Counted from the stretch's first letter, positions 50,425 through 64,000 are shown. The stretch is 64,000 nt of DNA from an uncultured virus (IMG/VR IMGVR_UViG_3300032088_001800) (IMGVR_UViG_3300032088_001800:1-64000), one strand, 5' to 3'. The notes: generated by a model not told the origin, from the sequence alone. Program-made: numbers and translations.

Positions 50425-51252
50425 ATGAGAAAAAAGAACTACCTTAATAATAAGGACATTTTAAAAGAAATACACAAATCTAAGAATACATATAACAGTT
50501 ACGTAGAAGAAGCATACGGACAGTTTGATATTATTTTATTAGATGTTGATAGAATTAATATTAGAACTATTGCAGAAGCAAAACGCAACAAAGCAAAACG
50601 CCTAAGTACAGCTGATTACGAAGCACGTAAAATGGCTGGACAAAAAGTTAAACAAGCAGAGTGCGAAGTTGATTATAGAAAAATTACAAAAGAAGAACTA
50701 ATTTTTCGTGTCATGACATTTGATCATATTCCAGAAGAACCTGGAAGAAAAAAGAATCCAAAGACAGTTGCAGACACAAAAACAAAACTAAACTTTCCTC
50801 CATTTAAACATTATAAGTTTACAGATGACGGCGAATTAGTATGTGTAGGAAAAAGTCATTGGGAAGGCGGCATGGAAAATGGTTGCTTTAGTAAGTCACA
50901 TGGCAAAGCAACAAACAATCTAGCTATGATGTGGATGAAGCTTTGTGATAGATACGCAACAAGAGGCAATGTACGTGGTTACACTTACAATGACGAAATG
51001 CGTGGTCAAGCAATCTTGCAATTAGCACAGATTGGCTTACAGTTTGACGAGTCAAAATCACAAAATCCATTTGCTTATTATACTGCGGCTGTAACTAATA
51101 GCTTTGTACGTGTTATCAATATAGAAAAGCGTAATCAAAATATTAGAGACGATATTCTTGAAATGAATGACTTGAATCCAAGTTATACAAGACAACATGC
51201 AGGCGAATGGGAAGCTGCCCTAAAAAGAGAAAAAGAACTTTCAAAAAAGTAG
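50425..51252 (+). CDS. gp55: Late-transcription sigma factor (T4 gp55-like)
   Basis: NYLNNKDILKEI; YTYNDEM...FDESKSQNPFAYYT..VTNSFVRVINIEKR; directly before gp47/gp46 as in T4-like phages. Confidence 0.8.
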   Translation: MRKKNYLNNKDILKEIHKSKNTYNSYVEEAYGQFDIILLDVDRINIRTIAEAKRNKAKRLSTADYEARKMAGQKVKQAECEVDYRKITKEELIFRVMTFDHIPEEPGRKKNPKTVADTKTKLNFPPFKHYKFTDDGELVCVGKSHWEGGMENGCFSKSHGKATNNLAMMWMKLCDRYATRGNVRGYTYNDEMRGQAILQLAQIGLQFDESKSQNPFAYYTAAVTNSFVRVINIEKRNQNIRDDILEMNDLNPSYTRQHAGEWEAALKREKELSKK

Positions 51253-51281
51253 TTGACAAGTGTACATTTTTGTTATATAAT
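51253..51281 (+). promoter_or_regulatory. Consensus sigma70 promoter for gp47-gp46
   Basis: TTGACA (51253-58), 17 bp, TATAAT (51276-81). Confidence 0.9.
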
Positions 51282-51311
51282 ATAACAAGTAGATAACCCG
51301 GAGACTATATT

Positions 51312-52319
51312 TTGTTTAAGAAAGCAGCAGTTTTTACTGACATACACTTTGGCCTTAAAAGTAATAGCCGAACGCATAACTCAGACTGTGAAGAATTCAT
51401 TGATTGGTTTATTGCTAATGCAAAAGAAAAAGGTTGCGAAACCTGCATTTTTTGCGGCGATTGGCATCACAACAGAAATTCACTTAATCTTACTACTATG
51501 GATGCAACAATTCGTAGTATGGAAAAGTTAGGCAAAGCATTTGATAAAGTTTTAATGTTTGTAGGAAATCATGATTTATATTACAAAGACAAACGTGATG
51601 TAAGTTCTACTGAGTTTGCTAGGCATATACCCGGTATTACAGTAGTTGATGAGATACTAGTTGAAGATGATGTTGCTCTTGTTCCATGGTTAGTCGGTGA
51701 TGAGTGGAAAAAAGTAGGAAAAATTAAAGCCAAATATTTGTTTGGTCATTTTGAACTACCTAGCTTCTATATGAATGCTATGGTACAGATGCCTGATCAC
51801 GGAGACTTAAAGGCTGAACATTTTGTTAATCAAGAATATGTGTTTTCAGGGCACTTTCATAAACGTCAAAAACAGGGCAAAGTACATTACTTAGGTAATG
51901 CATTTCCGCACAACTATGCAGATGCATGGGATGATGATCGTGGAATGATGGTACTAGAACACGGAGGCGAACCTGAGTACATTAACTGGGAAGCCTGTCC
52001 AAAATACAGAACAATAAAACTTTCTAAACTAATTGATGACACTGACAAACTTATTAAAGATAAGATGTATTTGCGTGTTACATTGGACTTACCAATTAGT
52101 TATGAAGAAGCTAACTTTATTAAAGAAACTTATATTAGCAATTACGGTGTTCGTGAACTAACACTTATACCGCAAAAGCAGATGGAAGAAATTAGTACAG
52201 ATTTAGATATTGCACAATTTGAAAGCGTTGATCAAATTGTAGCAAGTGAAATAGCAGAACTAGATACTGCCAACTACGATAAGAACACTCTCTTACAAAT
52301 ATATAATGGTTTAGAATGA
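51312..52319 (+). CDS. gp47: Recombination nuclease subunit, Mre11/SbcD-like (gp47)
   Basis: Metallophosphoesterase motifs DIHFG, GDWHH, GNHD, GH, SGHFH; TTG start with GGAG Shine-Dalgarno. Confidence 0.92.
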   Translation: MFKKAAVFTDIHFGLKSNSRTHNSDCEEFIDWFIANAKEKGCETCIFCGDWHHNRNSLNLTTMDATIRSMEKLGKAFDKVLMFVGNHDLYYKDKRDVSSTEFARHIPGITVVDEILVEDDVALVPWLVGDEWKKVGKIKAKYLFGHFELPSFYMNAMVQMPDHGDLKAEHFVNQEYVFSGHFHKRQKQGKVHYLGNAFPHNYADAWDDDRGMMVLEHGGEPEYINWEACPKYRTIKLSKLIDDTDKLIKDKMYLRVTLDLPISYEEANFIKETYISNYGVRELTLIPQKQMEEISTDLDIAQFESVDQIVASEIAELDTANYDKNTLLQIYNGLE

Positions 52320-54088
52320 TACGAATTAAAGATTTAACAGTTAAAAACTTCATGAGCGTGGGCAATCAAACCCAAGCTGTAGATTTCAATCGAGAACAGT
52401 TAACACTGGTACTTGGTGAAAATTTAGACCAAGGAGGTGATGATACTGGCTCAAGAAACGGTACAGGCAAAACTACAATAATTAATGCACTAAGTTATGC
52501 ATTATATGGTACTGCCTTGACTAATATTAAACGAAATAATCTTATAAACAAAACCAATTCTAAAGGTATGTTAGTCACACTTCATTTTGAAAAGAATGGT
52601 GTTGATTATCGAATTGAACGAGGCAGATCGCCCAACATTCTAAAGTTCTACATTAACGAACAAGAACAAGAAATGATTGACGAGTCACAAGGTGATAGTC
52701 GCAAAACACAAGAGTCAATCCACGAATTATTAGGTATGAGTCACGATATGTTTAAGCATATTGTTGCACTAAACACATACTCTGAGCCGTTCTTATCTAT
52801 GAGAGCTAATGACCAACGTGCAATTATTGAACAGCTACTTGGTATTACTATACTAACTGAAAAAGCAGATAGACTTAAAGAAAGTGTTAAACAAACTAAA
52901 GATAGTATCACAACTGAAACTTTAAAGATAGAAGCTATACAAACAGCCAACAGTAAGATTGAAGGAACAATTTCTAGTTTACAAAGAACACAACGAGCTT
53001 GGCTTTCTAAGAAATCACAAGACGTTGAAAAACTAACTTTAGGTATTGACGAATTAGAACATGTAAACATTGATATTGAATTAGATTCACATGAAAAACT
53101 ATCAAATTGGACTGAACATAACAATTCTATTTTGGCTCTTAAAAAAGAACTTAGTACTTTGGAACCAGCACTATTACGTGCTGATAAAAGTGTAATAAAA
53201 CTTGTTAAAGATGTCGCAGATTTAGAAGATGCTACATGTTATACTTGTGGACAAGAGCTACATGCAGACAAAAAAGCAGAAATTGCAGAACGTAAAGAAA
53301 AAGAATTAGATGATGCAAAAGCATACGCACTAGAAATTACTACAAAAGTAAAAGACGTTATGCTTGCTTTAGATGAAATAGGCGACATTAATGGTAAGCC
53401 TACTACGTTCTATGAAACAGCTAAAGAAGCATACGAGCATAGACAAAATGTTGATAGTTTAAGGACTGCACTTGCTTCAAAACAGGATGAAACTGATCCT
53501 TATCAAACGCAGATTGACGAATTAAACAACAGTGCTATACAAGAAATTAATTGGGACGAAATTAACGTATTAACAGATTATAAAGAACATCAAGAATTTT
53601 TGTTAAAGTTACTAACAAACAAAGATAGCTTTATTCGTAAGAAAATTATTGATCAAAATTTAGCATACTTAAATAATCGATTGTCTTATTATTTAGACAA
53701 ACTAGGATTGCCGCATCAGGTTGTGTTCTTAAATGATTTAAATGTTGAAATTACACAACTAGGACAAGATTTAGACTTTGACAATTTAAGTAGAGGTGAA
53801 CGTAACAGACTTATACTCGGCTTATCGTTTGCATTCCGTGATGTTTGGGAAAGTTTATATCAAGGCGTAAACTTGTTGTTTATTGATGAACTTATTGACA
53901 GTGGTATGGATGCTGCCGGTGTTGAAAATTCATTAAGCATCTTAAAGAAAATGGGTAGAGAACGTGAAAAGAACATTTATCTTATTTCGCACAAAGACGA
54001 ACTAATTGGTCGTGTTAATCATGTTCTAAAAGTTATCAAAGAAAATGGATTTACAAATTATGAAAATGATATTGAAGTTGTAGAATAA
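52316..54088 (+). CDS. gp46: Recombination ATPase, Rad50/SbcC-like (gp46)
   Basis: KNFMS, Walker A NGTGKT, coiled coil with CYTC zinc hook, LSRGE signature, LFIDE Walker B, ISH. Confidence 0.95.
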   Translation: MIRIKDLTVKNFMSVGNQTQAVDFNREQLTLVLGENLDQGGDDTGSRNGTGKTTIINALSYALYGTALTNIKRNNLINKTNSKGMLVTLHFEKNGVDYRIERGRSPNILKFYINEQEQEMIDESQGDSRKTQESIHELLGMSHDMFKHIVALNTYSEPFLSMRANDQRAIIEQLLGITILTEKADRLKESVKQTKDSITTETLKIEAIQTANSKIEGTISSLQRTQRAWLSKKSQDVEKLTLGIDELEHVNIDIELDSHEKLSNWTEHNNSILALKKELSTLEPALLRADKSVIKLVKDVADLEDATCYTCGQELHADKKAEIAERKEKELDDAKAYALEITTKVKDVMLALDEIGDINGKPTTFYETAKEAYEHRQNVDSLRTALASKQDETDPYQTQIDELNNSAIQEINWDEINVLTDYKEHQEFLLKLLTNKDSFIRKKIIDQNLAYLNNRLSYYLDKLGLPHQVVFLNDLNVEITQLGQDLDFDNLSRGERNRLILGLSFAFRDVWESLYQGVNLLFIDELIDSGMDAAGVENSLSILKKMGREREKNIYLISHKDELIGRVNHVLKVIKENGFTNYENDIEVVE

Positions 54089-54279
54089 TGGATGATACAC
54101 AAGATAAATTAGCTCAAGCATATTTAGAATACTTTCGAGCAAACGAGTTGTTTGAAACACGGAATAGTGTACGTACACACCGGTATGTAAGAAAATGTTT
54201 AAGAGATATTAGAACACTTGCAAAAGATAGAATGGAAGAAGTACACGTAAAGTATTTGGATAAGAAAAATAATGTTTAA
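54088..54279 (+). CDS. Small hypothetical helical protein
   Basis: 63-aa ORF coupled to gp46 (TAATG). Confidence 0.65.
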   Translation: MDDTQDKLAQAYLEYFRANELFETRNSVRTHRYVRKCLRDIRTLAKDRMEEVHVKYLDKKNNV

Positions 54280-54991
54280 TATTTGGAAAAAGAAAGAAAA
54301 ATTACACATAGATTGCTTTACTAATTTTGGTGGTATTACTAAACTTTTTCCAATAGAATCTAGTTCTGCTTTCATGCCTGAATGGTTTAAAAAGTTGCCT
54401 ACAACAGCACAAACTGATACTGGTGGTAATGTAGGAACTGTAAAATTATGTCCTGGAATAACTGATACATTAAAGGCCGGTATTGTTATTCCTGTTTGGT
54501 GTGATATGTTTGTAGACCATGCAAACGGAGTTGTTAAAACTGAGCCAGAAGAAATGGCAGACGGACATCCAAGTTGGCAATGGGGGAATCATTCATTGTT
54601 TAAAGGTTATCATCATTTAAAGATTTCATCACCTTGGCGATTTAGAGAAAAAACAGGTGCAAAATTTATGATGACTAATTCTTTTTGGAATGATCCTCAA
54701 ACTAATTATTTTGTTCCAAATGGTATTTTAGATTTCAAGTATCAAACTACAACTAATATTAATATTTGGATACCAAAAAATAAATTTGGTGGCAGCGGAA
54801 AATTTTTACTTGAAGCAGGAAATCCGCTAGTACAAATAATACCATTAGAGGATAAAGAAATTGTAATTCATATGCAAGAAGTTGGTGATGATGTATTTTA
54901 CGGAGACGAATTAGATTATATCTTTACACAAAAAGGCATGTATTATAAGAGAAAAAATATTTTGTCCAAACGAGAAGGCAAAAAAACTTAG
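54272..54991 (+). CDS. Hypothetical protein
   Basis: 239-aa ORF; PEWFKKLP, TVKLCPGI, GNPLVQIIP; no function assignable. Confidence 0.7.
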   Translation: MFNIWKKKEKLHIDCFTNFGGITKLFPIESSSAFMPEWFKKLPTTAQTDTGGNVGTVKLCPGITDTLKAGIVIPVWCDMFVDHANGVVKTEPEEMADGHPSWQWGNHSLFKGYHHLKISSPWRFREKTGAKFMMTNSFWNDPQTNYFVPNGILDFKYQTTTNINIWIPKNKFGGSGKFLLEAGNPLVQIIPLEDKEIVIHMQEVGDDVFYGDELDYIFTQKGMYYKRKNILSKREGKKT

Positions 54992-55008: not shown

Positions 55009-55458
55009 ATGCAGTGGACATTTGAAGGAAAAATAATAGACGAAATACCAGAAGAGTACGAAGGCTTTGTTTATCTTATTACAAATATCACTACAGGACA
55101 AAAATACATAGGCAAGAAACTAGCAAAATTTAAAACTACTAAGCCACCGCTTAAAGGCAGAAAAAATAAGAGACGTGGAACAAAAGAAAGCGATTGGAAA
55201 ACCTATTGGGGATCCAGTGATAGACTAAACGCAGATGTTGCACAACTAGGCGAAGACAAGTTTACAAGAGAAATATTATACCTATGTAAAGGTAGGGGCG
55301 AAATGTCCTACATAGAGGCACGAGAACAGTTTGACAGGCGAGTACTTGAAACAGATGATTACTACAATGGTATCATCAATGTTAGAGTAGGCGGATCAGA
55401 CAAACTCAAACAGGCATTGCTAGAACAAAACATCAAGGCAAAACAATCTAACACATAA
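55009..55458 (+). CDS. Small GIY-YIG endonuclease
   Basis: GFVYLITN...KYIGKK, YWGSS, conserved E (YIEAREQ) and YNG. Confidence 0.85.
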   Translation: MQWTFEGKIIDEIPEEYEGFVYLITNITTGQKYIGKKLAKFKTTKPPLKGRKNKRRGTKESDWKTYWGSSDRLNADVAQLGEDKFTREILYLCKGRGEMSYIEAREQFDRRVLETDDYYNGIINVRVGGSDKLKQALLEQNIKAKQSNT

Positions 55459-55800
55459 GGTTGGCGGGCCAGATTAATTTACCGCTGTGGAAAAAGCTCT
55501 CGTATAGAAGCACACGTAACACGTTGAGTCGCGTCTGGTAATAAGGCGTTGGATTGACGTAGATTGAATGTTAGCAATTGAAAAACACAAACACAGTACA
55601 TAAAAACTCTTTAGCAATAGGAACGAAGCGAGAGGTAGCGTAAGCAATGTCGACGTAGGTTGGGAAAGGTCAGAGCCCATTGTACTTTGTGTATAAACAA
55701 TTACCTACTTCCAATGTCTCGGCTGGTGCAAACTCACATGAAGCGCATTTTGAGATTAGATGGGACCGTAACAGGTTCCGTCTGACTGAAACAATCTACA
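55459..55800 (+). ncRNA. Candidate large structured non-coding RNA (family not recognised)
   Basis: About 43% GC by hand count against about 26% just downstream; at least 8 helices, G-U pairs and GNRA loops favouring the + strand; long-range helix GTAGATTG/CAATCTAC; crossing helix suggests a pseudoknot. Confidence 0.6.
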
Positions 55801-55811
55801 TGAAACTTAAA

Positions 55812-55921
55812 CATTATTACATTCGTAATAATGCATTTGTATCATATTCATTACTTCTATCAACAAACGAAGTATGTAGTTTGAGCGTTAAGCGAAAACA
55901 AATATCTACGAAGTAGATATT
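55812..55921. repeat. AT-rich cluster of inverted repeats (possible terminator, origin or processing hairpins)
   Basis: CATTATTAC-attc-GTAATAATG (55812-33), TACTTC/GAAGTA (55852-75), AATATCTAC-gaa-GTAGATATT (55901-21). Confidence 0.7.
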
Positions 55922-55933
55922 GAAACTATATAG

Positions 55934-55941
55934 TATAAATA
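55934..55941 (+). promoter_or_regulatory. T4-type late promoter TATAAATA
   Basis: Exact T4 late consensus 25 nt before ATG 55967. Confidence 0.8.
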
Positions 55942-55966
55942 CATTAACTACTAAGGATTCTTCTAG

Positions 55967-56524
55967 ATGAAAATTAATGAAATTGAAAAACTTGATGAAG
56001 TACCTGCAGGTATGATAGGTCAAGCTGGTAAAAAGCTTGGAGCAAAAGTATTAAACAAAATACCAGGCGGTGCTGCTAAATCAAAAGCTGCTAATATGGC
56101 AGCACAAGCTGACTTAGGAGATACTGCAAATAATTTGCATAAAGAATTTAATGCTCATCTTGGGTCTAAACAACTAACAATGGCACAAGCAACTGGAGAA
56201 GAATTAGTTGCTTTTCTAAAAACAAAGAATCACAAGACTGCTGCTAGAATACCTTCTGGTGTATTGCAAAAAAAGCAACTTGATGCAATACTAATGGCAG
56301 TTGCTAAAGAAGCAACAGCAGCACAAGCTGCTGCTCCGGCTGCAAATGCACCAGTAGATGCTAACAAAGATGGTATAGATGACAATACAGGAAAGCCAAT
56401 TAAAGCTGCTCCTGGCAAAGCTGCACCTGCGGCAGGTGCAAAACCTAAAATACCAGCAGACATTATGGCACAACTACAAAAACTTAGTCTTGAGCAAAAA
56501 CAACAGTTGGCAGAGCTATTATGA
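55967..56524 (+). CDS. Hypothetical Ala/Lys-rich late protein (possible internal head protein)
   Basis: MKINEIEKLDE N-terminus; late promoter upstream. Confidence 0.6.
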   Translation: MKINEIEKLDEVPAGMIGQAGKKLGAKVLNKIPGGAAKSKAANMAAQADLGDTANNLHKEFNAHLGSKQLTMAQATGEELVAFLKTKNHKTAARIPSGVLQKKQLDAILMAVAKEATAAQAAAPAANAPVDANKDGIDDNTGKPIKAAPGKAAPAAGAKPKIPADIMAQLQKLSLEQKQQLAELL

Positions 56525-58311: not shown

Positions 58312-58338
58312 TGACAGGATCCTTATGCGAAAAAATTT
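58292..58338 (-). other. Programmed -1 ribosomal frameshift signal (slippery heptamers plus 3' hairpin)
   Basis: A AAU UUU and U UUU UUC overlapping heptamers; hairpin AGGAUCCUGUCAA-uggggc-UUGACGAGAUCCU 5-8 nt downstream. Confidence 0.7.
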
Positions 58339-59186
58339 GATTGATCGAATGTTATAGGTATTTCAAAAGTTTCAGGTGCACCTTCTTCAATTTCTTCTGA
58401 AGTACTTTCAACTTTCATTGGTTCAATATTAAATTTTACTTTTTGTGTTTCCAAATGATCTAAAATATCATTAAAGAACTCTTTATCTGCATTGTCAATA
58501 AATTCTTGTATATGTAAGGGGTTATCTACAACTTGATCTTCAACTTCAATACTCTTAATACTTGTTGCTAACATGTTTACAGTCATTTGTGTGAGTTTTG
58601 CAAATGCTACATTAAACTTTTGAATCTTATCTTCATCTGGTATGTCATCATCATTAACAATTCTAAAGATTCTTTGCTCTTCAAACGTTTTCATAGCATT
58701 ACGTGTGAATTCTTTATAAGTTAACGGTGCTAAATTTACTACCATATCGCCAACTTGAATACGATCTTCAAAATGAGTGTTGGTTATCTTATTCAACATC
58801 TGTCTAAGATCCATATTATAATCACGTTCGCTTGTTGTATTAGGCGTAGTGTACGAAATCTGCATATGTTCACCGTATGTAGCAATACGTATAGCAATTA
58901 ATATAGCATCTAAGTCTACACTAGGCATTCCCCAAGCGTTTTTTATACTTGGAATACAACTTTGTATTACATCAACTGTACTTTGTCCGTTTAATAACGC
59001 ATCTGGTGTTTTCATAGCTAATTCATCTTTGGCTGTCATAGCAAATACTGGCAATTCTCCAGTTTCGGTCATTTCAATTGCACCGTCTGGGTAGTATTTT
59101 CCTCTACTTGGTAAATCTAAATAAACTTTAGGCTGTCGATAGAACTTCTTTAAAGGGTTTGCACCGGGTGCAGTAATTTCTGGCAT
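58323..59186 (-). CDS. Baseplate hub/tail assembly chaperone (T4 gp26-like)
   Basis: LPSRGKYY, MTAKDEL, DLDAILIAIRIATYG, C-terminal NFF; adjacent to the tape-measure-like gene. Confidence 0.7.
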   Translation of the reverse strand: MPEITAPGANPLKKFYRQPKVYLDLPSRGKYYPDGAIEMTETGELPVFAMTAKDELAMKTPDALLNGQSTVDVIQSCIPSIKNAWGMPSVDLDAILIAIRIATYGEHMQISYTTPNTTSERDYNMDLRQMLNKITNTHFEDRIQVGDMVVNLAPLTYKEFTRNAMKTFEEQRIFRIVNDDDIPDEDKIQKFNVAFAKLTQMTVNMLATSIKSIEVEDQVVDNPLHIQEFIDNADKEFFNDILDHLETQKVKFNIEPMKVESTSEEIEEGAPETFEIPITFDQSNFFA

Positions 59187-62500: not shown

Positions 62501-62511
62501 TGGAGTCATAA

Positions 62512-64000
62512 ATGAGTTGGAAAAAACATTTTACACCTGTCGCAACTGGTGACAATATGGGAGGCAGTTATAGTCCTCTCGGAGGTGCGTCCAACGGAAG
62601 CAATCCAGGTCCTGCACGTACTAACTATTCAAGTTACTTACCAGATGTATATGTAGGAACTCCAAACAGAGTTGAACGTTATGGTCAGTACAACACAATG
62701 GATCAAGATTCAGAAGTTAATGCTGCACTAGATATTCTTGCAGAATTTTGTACCCAAGAGAATAAACAAAACAAAACTCCATTTATAATGGACTTCAAAC
62801 AACAAGCTACTAATTCAGAAGTTACTATTATACAACAGTACTTGCTTCAATGGTGCAAGCTACAAAACTTTGATACTAAGATGTTCCGTACAATGAGAAA
62901 TATTTTTAAGTACGGAGATGCATTTTTTATTAGAGACCCAGAAACCAAACGTTGGTTCTATGTTGATCCTGCTAACGTAACAAAAATTATTGTAAATGAA
63001 TCAGAAGGCAAAGAACCTGAACAGTATGTTATTAAGAACTTTAATTTAAATTTTAAAGACGCAGTAGCAACAACTCCACACACTACAGGCGGAAACATAA
63101 GTGGCGGCGGAGCAGGTTCTTATCACCCGCAAGGCAATGCTAGAGGAATGGTAGGTCAACCGCAATCAAGTTTTACTGCAAGTAGATTTACAGAAGAAGA
63201 CGGCGAAATAACTGTTGATGCAAAACATATGGTTCATCTAAGTTTGTCAGAAGGTTTAGATCAAAACTTTCCTTTTGGTAACTCACTGCTTGAAACTATT
63301 TTTAAAGTATACAAACAAAAAGAATTACTTGAAGATGCTATTATTATCTATCGAGTACAACGTGCGCCAGAGCGCAGAGTATTCTACGTTGATGTGGGCA
63401 ACATGCCTTCACACCTTGCTATGCAGTTTGTGGAGCGTGTCAAAACGGAAATACATCAAAGACGTATCCCATCGGCGACAGGAGGCGGCACTAACGTCAT
63501 AGACAGTTCTTATAATCCTCTGTCAATTAACGAAGATTACTTTTTCCCACAAACTGCTGAAGGGCGTGGATCAAAAGTTGAAACACTACCAGGCGGTACT
63601 AACTTAGGAGAGATTGATGACCTTAGATATTTTACTAATAAGCTCGTACGCGGTTTACGAATCCCTAGTTCATACCTACCTACCGGCGCTGACGATTCAT
63701 CTGCGCAGTACAATGATGGACGAGTCGGTACTGCATACATACAAGAATTAAGATTTAATACTTACTGTGAACGTTTACAAAATCTTGTAGCTGAAGATTT
63801 TGATTTAGAATTTAAGCGTTACGTATTGGAAAAGGGTGTAAACATTGACACAGCAATGTTTGATCTAAGATTCCAACCACCGCAAAACTTTGCAGCATAT
63901 AGACAAAGTGAAATTGATAATGCACGTATTCCTACATTTACACAAATGAGTGCAATACCTTACGTTTCAAATAGATTTGCAATGAAACGTTTCTTAGGAA
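62512..64000 (+). CDS. gp20: Portal protein (T4 gp20-like), partial at window end
   Basis: Not in the ORF track; hand-translated from ATG 62512 (GGAG SD): MSWKKHFT...LLEDAIIIYRVQRAPERRVFYVDVGNMP...EDYFFP...VETLPGGTNLGEIDDLRYF. Confidence 0.92.
   Translation, partial: MSWKKHFTPVATGDNMGGSYSPLGGASNGSNPGPARTNYSSYLPDVYVGTPNRVERYGQYNTMDQDSEVNAALDILAEFCTQENKQNKTPFIMDFKQQATNSEVTIIQQYLLQWCKLQNFDTKMFRTMRNIFKYGDAFFIRDPETKRWFYVDPANVTKIIVNESEGKEPEQYVIKNFNLNFKDAVATTPHTTGGNISGGGAGSYHPQGNARGMVGQPQSSFTASRFTEEDGEITVDAKHMVHLSLSEGLDQNFPFGNSLLETIFKVYKQKELLEDAIIIYRVQRAPERRVFYVDVGNMPSHLAMQFVERVKTEIHQRRIPSATGGGTNVIDSSYNPLSINEDYFFPQTAEGRGSKVETLPGGTNLGEIDDLRYFTNKLVRGLRIPSSYLPTGADDSSAQYNDGRVGTAYIQELRFNTYCERLQNLVAEDFDLEFKRYVLEKGVNIDTAMFDLRFQPPQNFAAYRQSEIDNARIPTFTQMSAIPYVSNRFAMKRFLG

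Follow-up and report, generated by a model that had tools for sequence, protein, structure and literature searches.

We found that a 508-bp gap between two genes of an uncultured virus with T4-like gene content encodes a structured RNA on the + strand. The gap (55459-55966) lies in the window, that is, the whole 64-kb stretch that we analysed, with which a 135-kb IMG/VR virus record begins. The RNA gene runs from 55459 to about 55900, roughly 450 nt, and its helices, at least 16 in number, include a 10-bp pseudoknot. The RNA is a new family, contained in no Rfam family, and it is an autonomous unit, separable from the GIY-YIG nuclease gene beside which it usually lies. We hold with high confidence that this is a real new structured RNA, independent of the nuclease. 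The best overall explanation, to which we give a probability of about 50%, is that this new and separable RNA family acts in trans as a ribozyme or scaffold presenting two identical arms.

The locus and the fold of the RNA

The gap separates a 149-aa ORF (55009-55458) from a gene starting at 55967. Its length is as the initial annotation had given it, and so is the GC content of about 43% over the first 340 nt: we computed 43.6% for 55459-55800, followed by 26.5% for 55801-55966, with 35.2% for the whole window. Its description as the only gap above about 90 bp is roughly right, a greedy ORF call leaving one other internal gap (934-1135, 202 bp); an apparent gap at 62501-63274 in this crude call is an ORF that runs off the window end. 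We rejected a coding reading of the 508 bp: the two crude ORFs there (68 aa on the - strand and 78 aa on the + strand) match nothing in Pfam or PHROG and are disrupted by 1-nt and ~35-nt indels in 92%-identical relatives. The surrounding genes are T4-like, with gp55-, gp47- and gp46-like genes at 50425-54088 and a baseplate hub gene at 58323-59186; the gp55 late sigma factor homologue, read by eye, occupies 50425-51252, and the gp47/gp46-like recombination/replication genes span 51312-54088. The best isolate match of gp46 is in jumbo phage PA5oct (48.6%), and the virus has no close cultured relative.

The fold is supported by covariation among homologs, a check that the initial annotation had proposed. 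Pairs were counted on a plain MAFFT alignment, which is therefore not fitted to structure. The first set of loci, fetched by the nuclease, gave 50 unique full-length sequences; L039 and L059, whose 3' ends are cut short, were left out, and the other 48 were aligned. The 16-helix model, drawn from MI-APC pairs and the helix list of the initial annotation and then counted on this alignment, comprises 94 pairs, and 95.9% of its cells are paired, compared to 33.9-41.8% when partners are slid by 1-3 columns and 90.0% in shuffles. Changes on both sides were seen in 40/94 pairs, as against 9-18 when slid and 21.6 +/- 2.3 in shuffles (0/500 reach 40), and the covariation score was 0.203 for the model, 0.027-0.051 for slid partners and 0.108 for shuffles. 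Furthermore, in an unguided MI-APC scan of 95 unique sequences, Watson-Crick covarying pairs rank at the top and stack into the same helices. The + strand, as had been claimed, is borne out by columns fixed as G-U or U-G in 42-48 of the 48 sequences, because these many pairs would be A-C mismatches on the other strand. The minimum free energy is no better than that of shuffled controls (z = -0.83 on the + strand and +0.73 on the - strand), an outcome that the initial annotation had listed as counting against the RNA; support for the fold thus comes from covariation rather than folding energy, and covariation outweighs this null result.

The 5' domain (helices 1-5, 55459-55582; this and all following features are on the + strand) is paired in 92-100% of cells. 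It opens with the hairpin 55463-67/55482-86, in which no pair changed on both sides, followed by the helix 55487-89/55513-15 (one pair changed on both sides; MI-APC top pair 55488/55514), which encloses a variable hairpin at 55496-500/55508-11 with four such pairs, also among the MI-APC top pairs. Next comes a long variable hairpin at 55521-60, whose base (55521-27/55554-60) has three pairs changed on both sides, with MI-APC top pairs at 55522-24/55557-59, and whose inner part is exchanged between alternative forms. The domain closes with the hairpin 55562-66/55575-79 (one pair). Covariation likewise supports the pseudoknotted core (helices 6-11, 55583-55725). The pseudoknot joins 55591-600 to 55681-92 through 10 bp, 6 of which changed on both sides, and is 95.7% paired; its MI-APC pairs, 55596-600/55681-85, are all 100% Watson-Crick or wobble. 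Its 3' strand (55681-92) sits within two nested helices, 55649-53/55719-23 (100% paired, with one-sided changes only) and 55655-60/55703-08 (two pairs changed on both sides). The core also holds the helix 55607-11/55630-34, which continues as 55614-15/55628-29 and carries a conserved 12-nt loop (three pairs changed on both sides), the hairpin 55638-39/55644-45, of variable length and up to ~100 nt longer in relatives (two pairs), and the near-invariant hairpin 55661-64/55676-79. Every core helix is kept by compensating changes, read by eye, in the divergent loci L120 and L129.

Beyond the core lies a module at 55726-55805 with a 12-bp hairpin (55756-67/55774-85) that is retained in the covariation-supported model. 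The 3' domain (helices 14-16, 55806-55899) shows covariation in all three of its hairpins: 55812-19/55826-33 (8/8 pairs changed on both sides), 55852-57/55869-74 (3/6), and the conserved 55879-82/55896-99 with 55885-86/55892-93 (3/6), which contains two adjacent G-A mismatches, a GNNA-type loop and the MI-APC pair 55886/55892 (CG:76, TA:13). The structured core described in the initial annotation is therefore upheld, while the extent of ~340 nt given there is too short, the conserved, covarying RNA running to ~55900; by blastn, homology among relatives extends to about 55900-55958. Among relatives, two peripheral hairpins (the inner part of 55521-60 and the hairpin at 55638-45) are exchanged for other forms or extended by as much as ~100 nt, as is characteristic of structured RNAs. 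Further long-range pairings proposed by RNAalifold link invariant stretches and are beyond covariation testing. The RNA is single-copy in the 135-kb record (nhmmer).

Nine of the 11 helices that had been read by eye survived this analysis. The pseudoknot 55591-600/55681-92 is among the best supported, and the helix 55463-67/55482-86 was kept on the 48 sequences, as were the base of the hairpin 55521-60, the CTCT/AGAG helix (55607-34, now 55607-11/55630-34), the hairpin 55638-45, the helices 55649-53/55719-23, 55655-60/55703-08 and 55661-64/55676-79, and the 12-bp hairpin 55756-85. Two fail. The long-range pairing 55559-66/55792-99 has no compensatory changes, its outer pair is broken in 31/48 sequences and its seventh pair in 12/48, and bases 55562-66 form a local helix with 55575-79; the helix 55733-36/55751-54 has two broken pairs, one in 26/48 sequences and the other in 20/48. 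The list had not included 55487-89/55513-15, 55496-500/55508-11 or the 3' part (55806-55899).

At the 3' edge, an A-T-rich 8-bp hairpin (55902-55920), replaced in relatives by a hairpin of other sequence at the same place, may mark the end of the RNA; no U-tract follows it, and a consensus terminator scan found no + strand terminator here. Further on, 55934-55941 matches the 8-mer that we take to be the T4-type late promoter consensus. Because this match lies directly upstream of the next gene (26 nt before its start at 55967), that gene would have its own promoter. The TAAATA core is retained at this position in most relatives.

Rfam 15 (4227 models, including group I and II introns, tmRNA, RNase P, GOLLD, ROOL, HEARO, OLE, riboswitches and small ribozymes) gave no match at gathering score in the whole window and none at E up to 10 in 55300-56100 on either strand, and ARAGORN found no tRNA or tmRNA gene in the window or the 135-kb record. 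These results agree with the earlier statement that the RNA is not a tRNA, tmRNA, RNase P or group II intron, and, together with the covariation for fold and pseudoknot, they support the claim of an undescribed, highly structured, pseudoknotted RNA. A tmRNA was also rejected on the features of 55459-55900, which has neither a tag frame nor a T-arm; the two-piece tmRNA of the related Methylophilales phage Melnitz is at a different locus, where it adjoins a gp33-like coactivator and a glutamine riboswitch according to the available text of PMC9004378. A literature search by text, which is unable to match by sequence, found no account of the RNA, just as Rfam 15 held no match. The available text of PMC12379486, in which pelagimyophages and non-coding RNA are both mentioned, contains nothing on the RNA of 55459-55900, and the titles and abstract openings of papers on GIY-YIG nucleases, structured RNA and phages contain nothing relevant.

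Distribution of the RNA and its linkage to the GIY-YIG gene

A nuclease-protein search of IMG/VR gave at least 598 confirmed stretches, of which 80 were kept at 86-96% identity. In the nuclease-fetched set, the gap sequence directly follows the ORF in 83/84 loci (69-99% nt identity, blastn), the exception, L007, ending 24 nt past the nuclease ORF. This set is biased to the nuclease and unusable for measuring co-occurrence; therefore, loci were also fetched by an RNA core pattern, a 19-nt degenerate pattern from the most conserved hairpin, which located at least 120 stretches on viral contigs, flanks being included for 80. Locus counts from such collection scans are lower bounds. With an HMM built from the alignment, nhmmer found 204 matches among the collected loci, of which 147 are almost complete; an end-coverage filter retained 129, and 95 of these are unique, with pairwise identities of 60-100% (median 77%). 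These results show that the RNA is present in well over 200 uncultured marine phage contigs. A distant-mode blastn search of 50,697 phage records with the gap sequence gave no match in cultured phages. Frequent in marine phages that are uncultured and missing from those in culture, the RNA points to a part of phage biology still to be explored. When 185,579 species genomes were scanned, at least 120 stretches were returned; among the matches listed, two are true homologues by nhmmer (L209 and L325), L209 lying on a 72.8-kb contig binned with a Crocinitomicaceae MAG, and we discarded the remaining stretches as chance matches to a 17-mer.

In marine metatranscriptome contigs, the nuclease ORF and the 5' part of the RNA are covered in 4/4 runs, and some contigs bridge the boundary between them (55398-55518 and 55450-55632), these being contigs only, for which DNA carry-over is possible. 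Neither the uncovered parts nor the higher summed depth over ORF and RNA can be read as expression levels.

The neighbouring gene (55009-55458, + strand), which lies outside the RNA, encodes a free-standing GIY-YIG nuclease of SegE type. Its 149-aa product matches PF19835 SegE_GIY-YIG in Pfam (E 7.8e-36, profile positions 1-123 of 123) and phrog_447 in PHROG (E 1.2e-39, profile positions 9-143 of 148). PF19835 covers residues 3-123, so that the nuclease is the catalytic domain with almost nothing added. No PDB relative was found at E up to 1, and the gene is single-copy in the 135-kb record. Both in the window and in relatives, the RNA starts 1 nt past the nuclease stop codon. The ORFs upstream are complete and include one that matches phrog_7084 (profile positions 5-201 of 240). 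In the long loci, gp46 (45/47) and a 63-aa ORF (43/47) usually come first, followed by the nuclease and the RNA, and after them by genes that vary; the 239-aa gene found ahead of the nuclease in the window occurs in only 2/47, and a 185-aa protein, for which Pfam and PHROG gave no family match, is encoded downstream in 18/47.

The RNA and the nuclease can be separated in both directions. In the set fetched by the RNA pattern, a GIY-YIG ORF of 48-96% aa identity lies upstream in 72/80 loci. Of the remaining eight, five extend 240 nt or less upstream, and three (L088, L120 and L129), which extend 800 nt, have other small ORFs upstream of the RNA in place of the GIY-YIG gene, one with a zinc-ribbon-like motif and one after a sigma-70-like promoter (by eye). 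A subfamily pattern added five loci of two divergent types (L327-L331), none with the nuclease. Conversely, Melnitz has a 72%-identical GIY-YIG gene just downstream of its ribonucleotide reductase genes, and the 148-nt gap after it gave no match to the RNA by nhmmer at E up to 100. The phrog_447-type nuclease is widespread, with tblastn matches in 784 phage records. Thus, the RNA is shown to be an autonomous unit, since it occurs apart from the nuclease and the nuclease apart from it. The tight linkage over 48-96% protein identity could nonetheless reflect a functional tie in most lineages.

We infer that the GIY-YIG gene is a free-standing homing endonuclease of Seg type parked beside a conserved RNA gene. 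It has the catalytic domain of the Seg family, stands alone between complete genes rather than in an intron, and is patchy at an otherwise conserved locus, and the same family occurs at other loci, as in Melnitz. According to the available parts of PMC2330249 and PMC13096335, SegB of T4 and T6 is a free-standing GIY-YIG homing endonuclease inside a tRNA gene cluster that cuts within the neighbouring tRNA genes and is statistically enriched near them; the latter source also describes SegB as driving the amplification of anti-defence loci. As in the case of SegB, we see a non-intronic Seg-family GIY-YIG gene directly beside a gene for a stable structured RNA, and nuclease and RNA genes that are separable and occur apart in other phages. 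Unlike the tRNAs of SegB, the RNA here is one 450-nt pseudoknotted molecule, and the protein, with 149 aa, has little beyond the catalytic domain. The locus would extend the parking of Seg-type nucleases beside stable RNA genes to an RNA that is not a tRNA.

Two identical arms in the 3' half of the RNA

The module at 55726-55805 carries two single-stranded arms. Arm 1 (55733-43, core 7-mer 55736-42) lies in the loop of a short variable hairpin (55726-29/55745-48), and arm 2 occupies 55795-805 (core 7-mer 55798-804); the arms flank the 12-bp hairpin 55756-67/55774-85 and are spaced 54-68 nt apart. The two 7-mers are identical to each other in 92/95 unique sequences. When arm 1 is variant, as in 25 sequences with seven variant 7-mers, the same variant is found in arm 2 in 23. 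On a tree built without the arm columns, we counted at least 12 and at least 11 state changes for the two arms, and in 8 independent well-supported contrasts arm 2 changed the same way in about 6, the opposite way in none and showed no difference in about 2 (sign test p ~0.03), although phage recombination violates the assumption of a tree and weakens these counts. Three sequences with an A-to-G arm change have as their sole private columns the same position in each arm, and the two divergent nuclease-less types carry a quite different arm sequence that is again the same in both arms. Both arms are present in 160/160 sequences covering the module, and variants lacking the unit between them number 0/160.

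When the columns private to each variant group were listed, no complementary partner for the arms was found inside the RNA; the candidate complements 55709-17 and 55687-93, picked by eye, are unchanged when the arms change. Covariation by identity rather than by complementarity suggests that a single reader serves both arms, or that copying takes place, and does not suggest an internal helix; some cause at the DNA level could also keep them identical. Several further candidates were rejected. A candidate third copy of the arm, where the RNA begins at its 5' border, differs among relatives at a codon position whose changes are synonymous and does not track the arm variants; three further copies in the flanking DNA fall within coding regions and are about as many as chance predicts; and small ORFs starting at the arms have reading frames that differ between subgroups (by eye). 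Within the window the arm motif shows no enrichment: with up to 2 mismatches allowed, it matches 59 times where 86.5 matches would be expected.

Possible function and alternative readings

In the explanation that we favour, the RNA would be co-transcribed with whichever small ORF lies upstream and would act in trans; the metatranscriptome contigs bridging the junction in 4/4 runs are weak evidence for co-transcription. Its rigid conserved core, with the pseudoknot and near-invariant loops, would be a ribozyme or a ribonucleoprotein scaffold, which is our best guess from its size, its pseudoknot and its near-invariant unpaired stretches. Few large RNAs combine many conserved helices with a pseudoknot and invariant unpaired stretches, and those with a worked-out function are usually ribozymes or the cores of ribonucleoprotein machines. 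The module 55726-55805 would then present two identical single-stranded arms of 7-10 nt astride the 12-bp hairpin, and one outside reader would recognise both. Possible readers are RNA-binding proteins or nucleases that are dimeric or built of repeats, and nucleic acids outside this RNA. We offer this twin-arm mechanism tentatively, as a possibility worth pursuing.

Three other readings take their cue from the neighbourhood of the RNA. Hybrid-priming models, such as ColE1 RNA II and the R-loops at T4 oriF and oriG, suggest an origin or primer RNA that would stay hybridised to the A-T-rich DNA immediately downstream and prime replication at its own locus. Like the RNA II preprimer, this is a long folded transcript upstream of an A-T-rich stretch: the RNA, at 43.6% GC, gives way at once to 166 bp at 26.5% GC, and the locus borders recombination/replication genes (51312-54088; gp46 upstream in 45/47) and structural genes. 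We consider a primer unlikely, since known primers need far less conserved structure than 16 covarying helices and near-invariant loops, and the structure is far more elaborate and conserved than that of RNA II; moreover, the A-T-rich stretch also carries ordinary hairpins and the late-promoter match of the next gene, the context is quite different in GIY-less loci, and an arm spacing of 54-68 nt is at odds with phased iterons. The same RNA behind the unrelated small ORFs of L088, L120 and L129, together with the Melnitz nuclease gene, 72% identical and devoid of the RNA, makes a cis-acting 3' untranslated element that stabilises or limits the GIY-YIG mRNA improbable, even though the RNA starts 1 nt past the stop codon in the window and relatives and contigs from RNA libraries bridge the two; its size, pseudoknot and near-invariant loops go far beyond what a stabiliser needs. 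We give little credence to the RNA as a partner or guide of the GIY-YIG nuclease, with the arms supplying target recognition. Such a role would suit a protein that is essentially a catalytic domain alone (PF19835, residues 3-123 of 149 aa), its position next to the RNA in 72/80 pattern-fetched loci, and arms that vary like specificity segments and have no partner within the RNA. Yet RNA and nuclease are each found without the other, the arms stay identical in nuclease-less loci, phrog_447 has tblastn matches in 784 phage records whereas the gap region has blastn matches in 0/50,697, and arms of 7 nt are too short to specify a DNA target alone. The RNA thereby differs from the omega RNA of OMEGA-type systems (TnpB/IscB) and the IS110 bridge RNA in having no obligate pairing with a nuclease gene, as is seen in the loci L088, L120, L129 and L327-L331 and, conversely, in Melnitz; no outside target for the arms was found.

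Two further readings concern the nature of the structure itself. The pseudoknot, which links a 5' strand with the inner part of a helix further on and is followed by an A-rich joiner, recalls a group I core, as do the stack of two helices, the GNRA-type loops on the variable hairpin and the homing endonuclease gene next to the RNA. These features suggest a highly divergent group I intron, or a ribozyme descended from such an intron. The order of elements in group I introns is P3-P4/P5/P6-P7-P3'-P8-P7', with the P8 hairpin between P3' and P7'. Here, the order differs: the hairpin 55661-79 precedes the pseudoknot 3' strand (55681-92), and thus falls between the P7-like 5' strand and the P3-like 3' strand, and only an unpaired joiner, with no hairpin, leads from the P3-like 3' strand to the P7-like 3' strand at 55703-08. 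Furthermore, there are no exons and no split host gene at the 55459-55900 locus, the flanking ORFs being complete and the next gene having its own start and promoter match, and the Rfam Intron_gpI model gives no match even at E 10. We rejected a group I intron on both its element order and its host gene, and regard the broader idea of a divergent relative or derivative as very improbable. The small GIY-YIG gene next to a hairpin-rich stretch would also fit an element at the DNA level, whose single-stranded hairpins that nuclease recognises; this we find hardly credible for a stretch that is single-copy rather than a dispersed repeat, contains dozens of strand-specific G-U pairs (columns fixed in 42-48/48), has a pseudoknot and long conserved unpaired stretches, and occurs without the nuclease as well.

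Among described RNAs, the nearest in kind are GOLLD, ROOL, OLE and HEARO, large structured non-coding RNAs from comparative genomics whose function is unknown and which are all in Rfam. The RNA resembles them in its several hundred nucleotides, many covarying helices, near-invariant unpaired stretches and occurrence in phages or metagenomes, and differs in having no Rfam match at E up to 10; to our knowledge, twin identical arms have no counterpart in any of the four. In type III toxin-antitoxin systems, the RNA (ToxI) consists of tandem near-identical repeats followed by the gene of an endoribonuclease toxin. Here too, identical short sites flank a small structured unit, as would be expected were one endonuclease to cut both and so release it, but there is one unit with two short arms and no tandem array, no toxin gene follows, the downstream genes vary, and a conserved pseudoknotted core of ~300 nt is left unexplained by that model. 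We rejected membership in these systems on the single unit and on the downstream 185-aa protein, which is present in 18/47 loci and has no family match.

A bolder extension of the twin-arm scaffold, which we consider doubtful, is that the RNA may be a modular, programmable machine, in which a conserved pseudoknotted core, serving as a ribozyme or as a scaffold that binds protein, carries two copies of one short specificity segment that lineages retune together. On one version of it, the arms would pair with, or be cut by, a fast-evolving partner such as a host defence nuclease, and cleavage of both would release the hairpin unit of ~60 nt to serve as a decoy or antitoxin; on another, the arms would be twin guides for a symmetric target. 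If this were true, phage RNAs whose arms are programmable in sequence would form a new class, and the Seg-type nuclease would contribute to the spread or amplification of the locus, much as SegB does with tRNA genes that serve anti-defence. Arms that are identical yet changing are unusual, and their reader should co-vary with them, which would make the partner discoverable.

Alternative pairing and the 3' hairpin of the RNA

The invariant 8-mer at 55792-99, within the structured plus-strand RNA that lies directly 3' of the nuclease gene, is complementary to two sites, 55559-66 and 55655-62. The second of these forms the 5' side of a core helix that is itself supported (55655-60/55703-08), and it was the 55655-62/55792-99 pairing that RNAalifold chose over that with 55559-66. 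Modelled in this way, the pairing of 55792-99 with 55655-62 could represent an alternative conformer of the RNA; the columns concerned are invariant, which places it beyond a covariation test.

Farther downstream, the conserved 3' hairpin (55879-55899) carries two adjacent G-A mismatches beside a 2-bp stem and is closed by a GNNA-type loop. This arrangement resembles the stem II junction of the hammerhead ribozyme. However, the CUGA segment that belongs to the hammerhead core is absent from this hairpin, and the hairpin at 55879-55899 had no match in Rfam.

Contig ends and the nuclease gene

Among the 80 IMG/VR contigs fetched with the nuclease protein (L006-L085), 25 end in the interior of the RNA (the equivalent of window positions 55459-55800), and 13 of these 25 stop approximately 140-160 nt past the nuclease ORF. 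The assemblies probably break here because near-invariant stretches of the core are common to co-occurring strains, whereas the variable hairpins of these strains differ.

At the boundary between gene and RNA, the nuclease stop codon (TAA, 55456-58) is replaced by AAA in five relatives (L018, L019, L042, L073 and L105), so that in these loci the nuclease ORF would extend into the RNA's first hairpin (55463-67/55482-86 in the window). On the other side of the nuclease gene, a 239-aa gene (54272-54991; phrog_7084, function unknown) separates it from the 63-aa ORF. Just two of 47 long related loci carry this gene, which appears to have been inserted recently in the window's lineage.

The phage record and a copy in a Bacteroidota bin

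CheckV estimated the completeness of the whole record at 35% for its 135 kb, and the nearest relatives of its gp46 belong to jumbo phages roughly 287 kb in size; for these two reasons, the record may be a jumbo phage fragment. No tRNA or tmRNA was found across the 135 kb. A second internal gap in the window, of 202 bp (934-1135; crude ORF call, ORFs of at least 50 aa), was without an Rfam match.

A full-length copy of the RNA, together with gp46, the 63-aa ORF and the nuclease, was present on a 72.8-kb contig from a species-genome collection (L209). This contig had been binned with a Crocinitomicaceae (Bacteroidota) MAG; either it is a phage contig placed in the wrong bin, or the association hints at the host.
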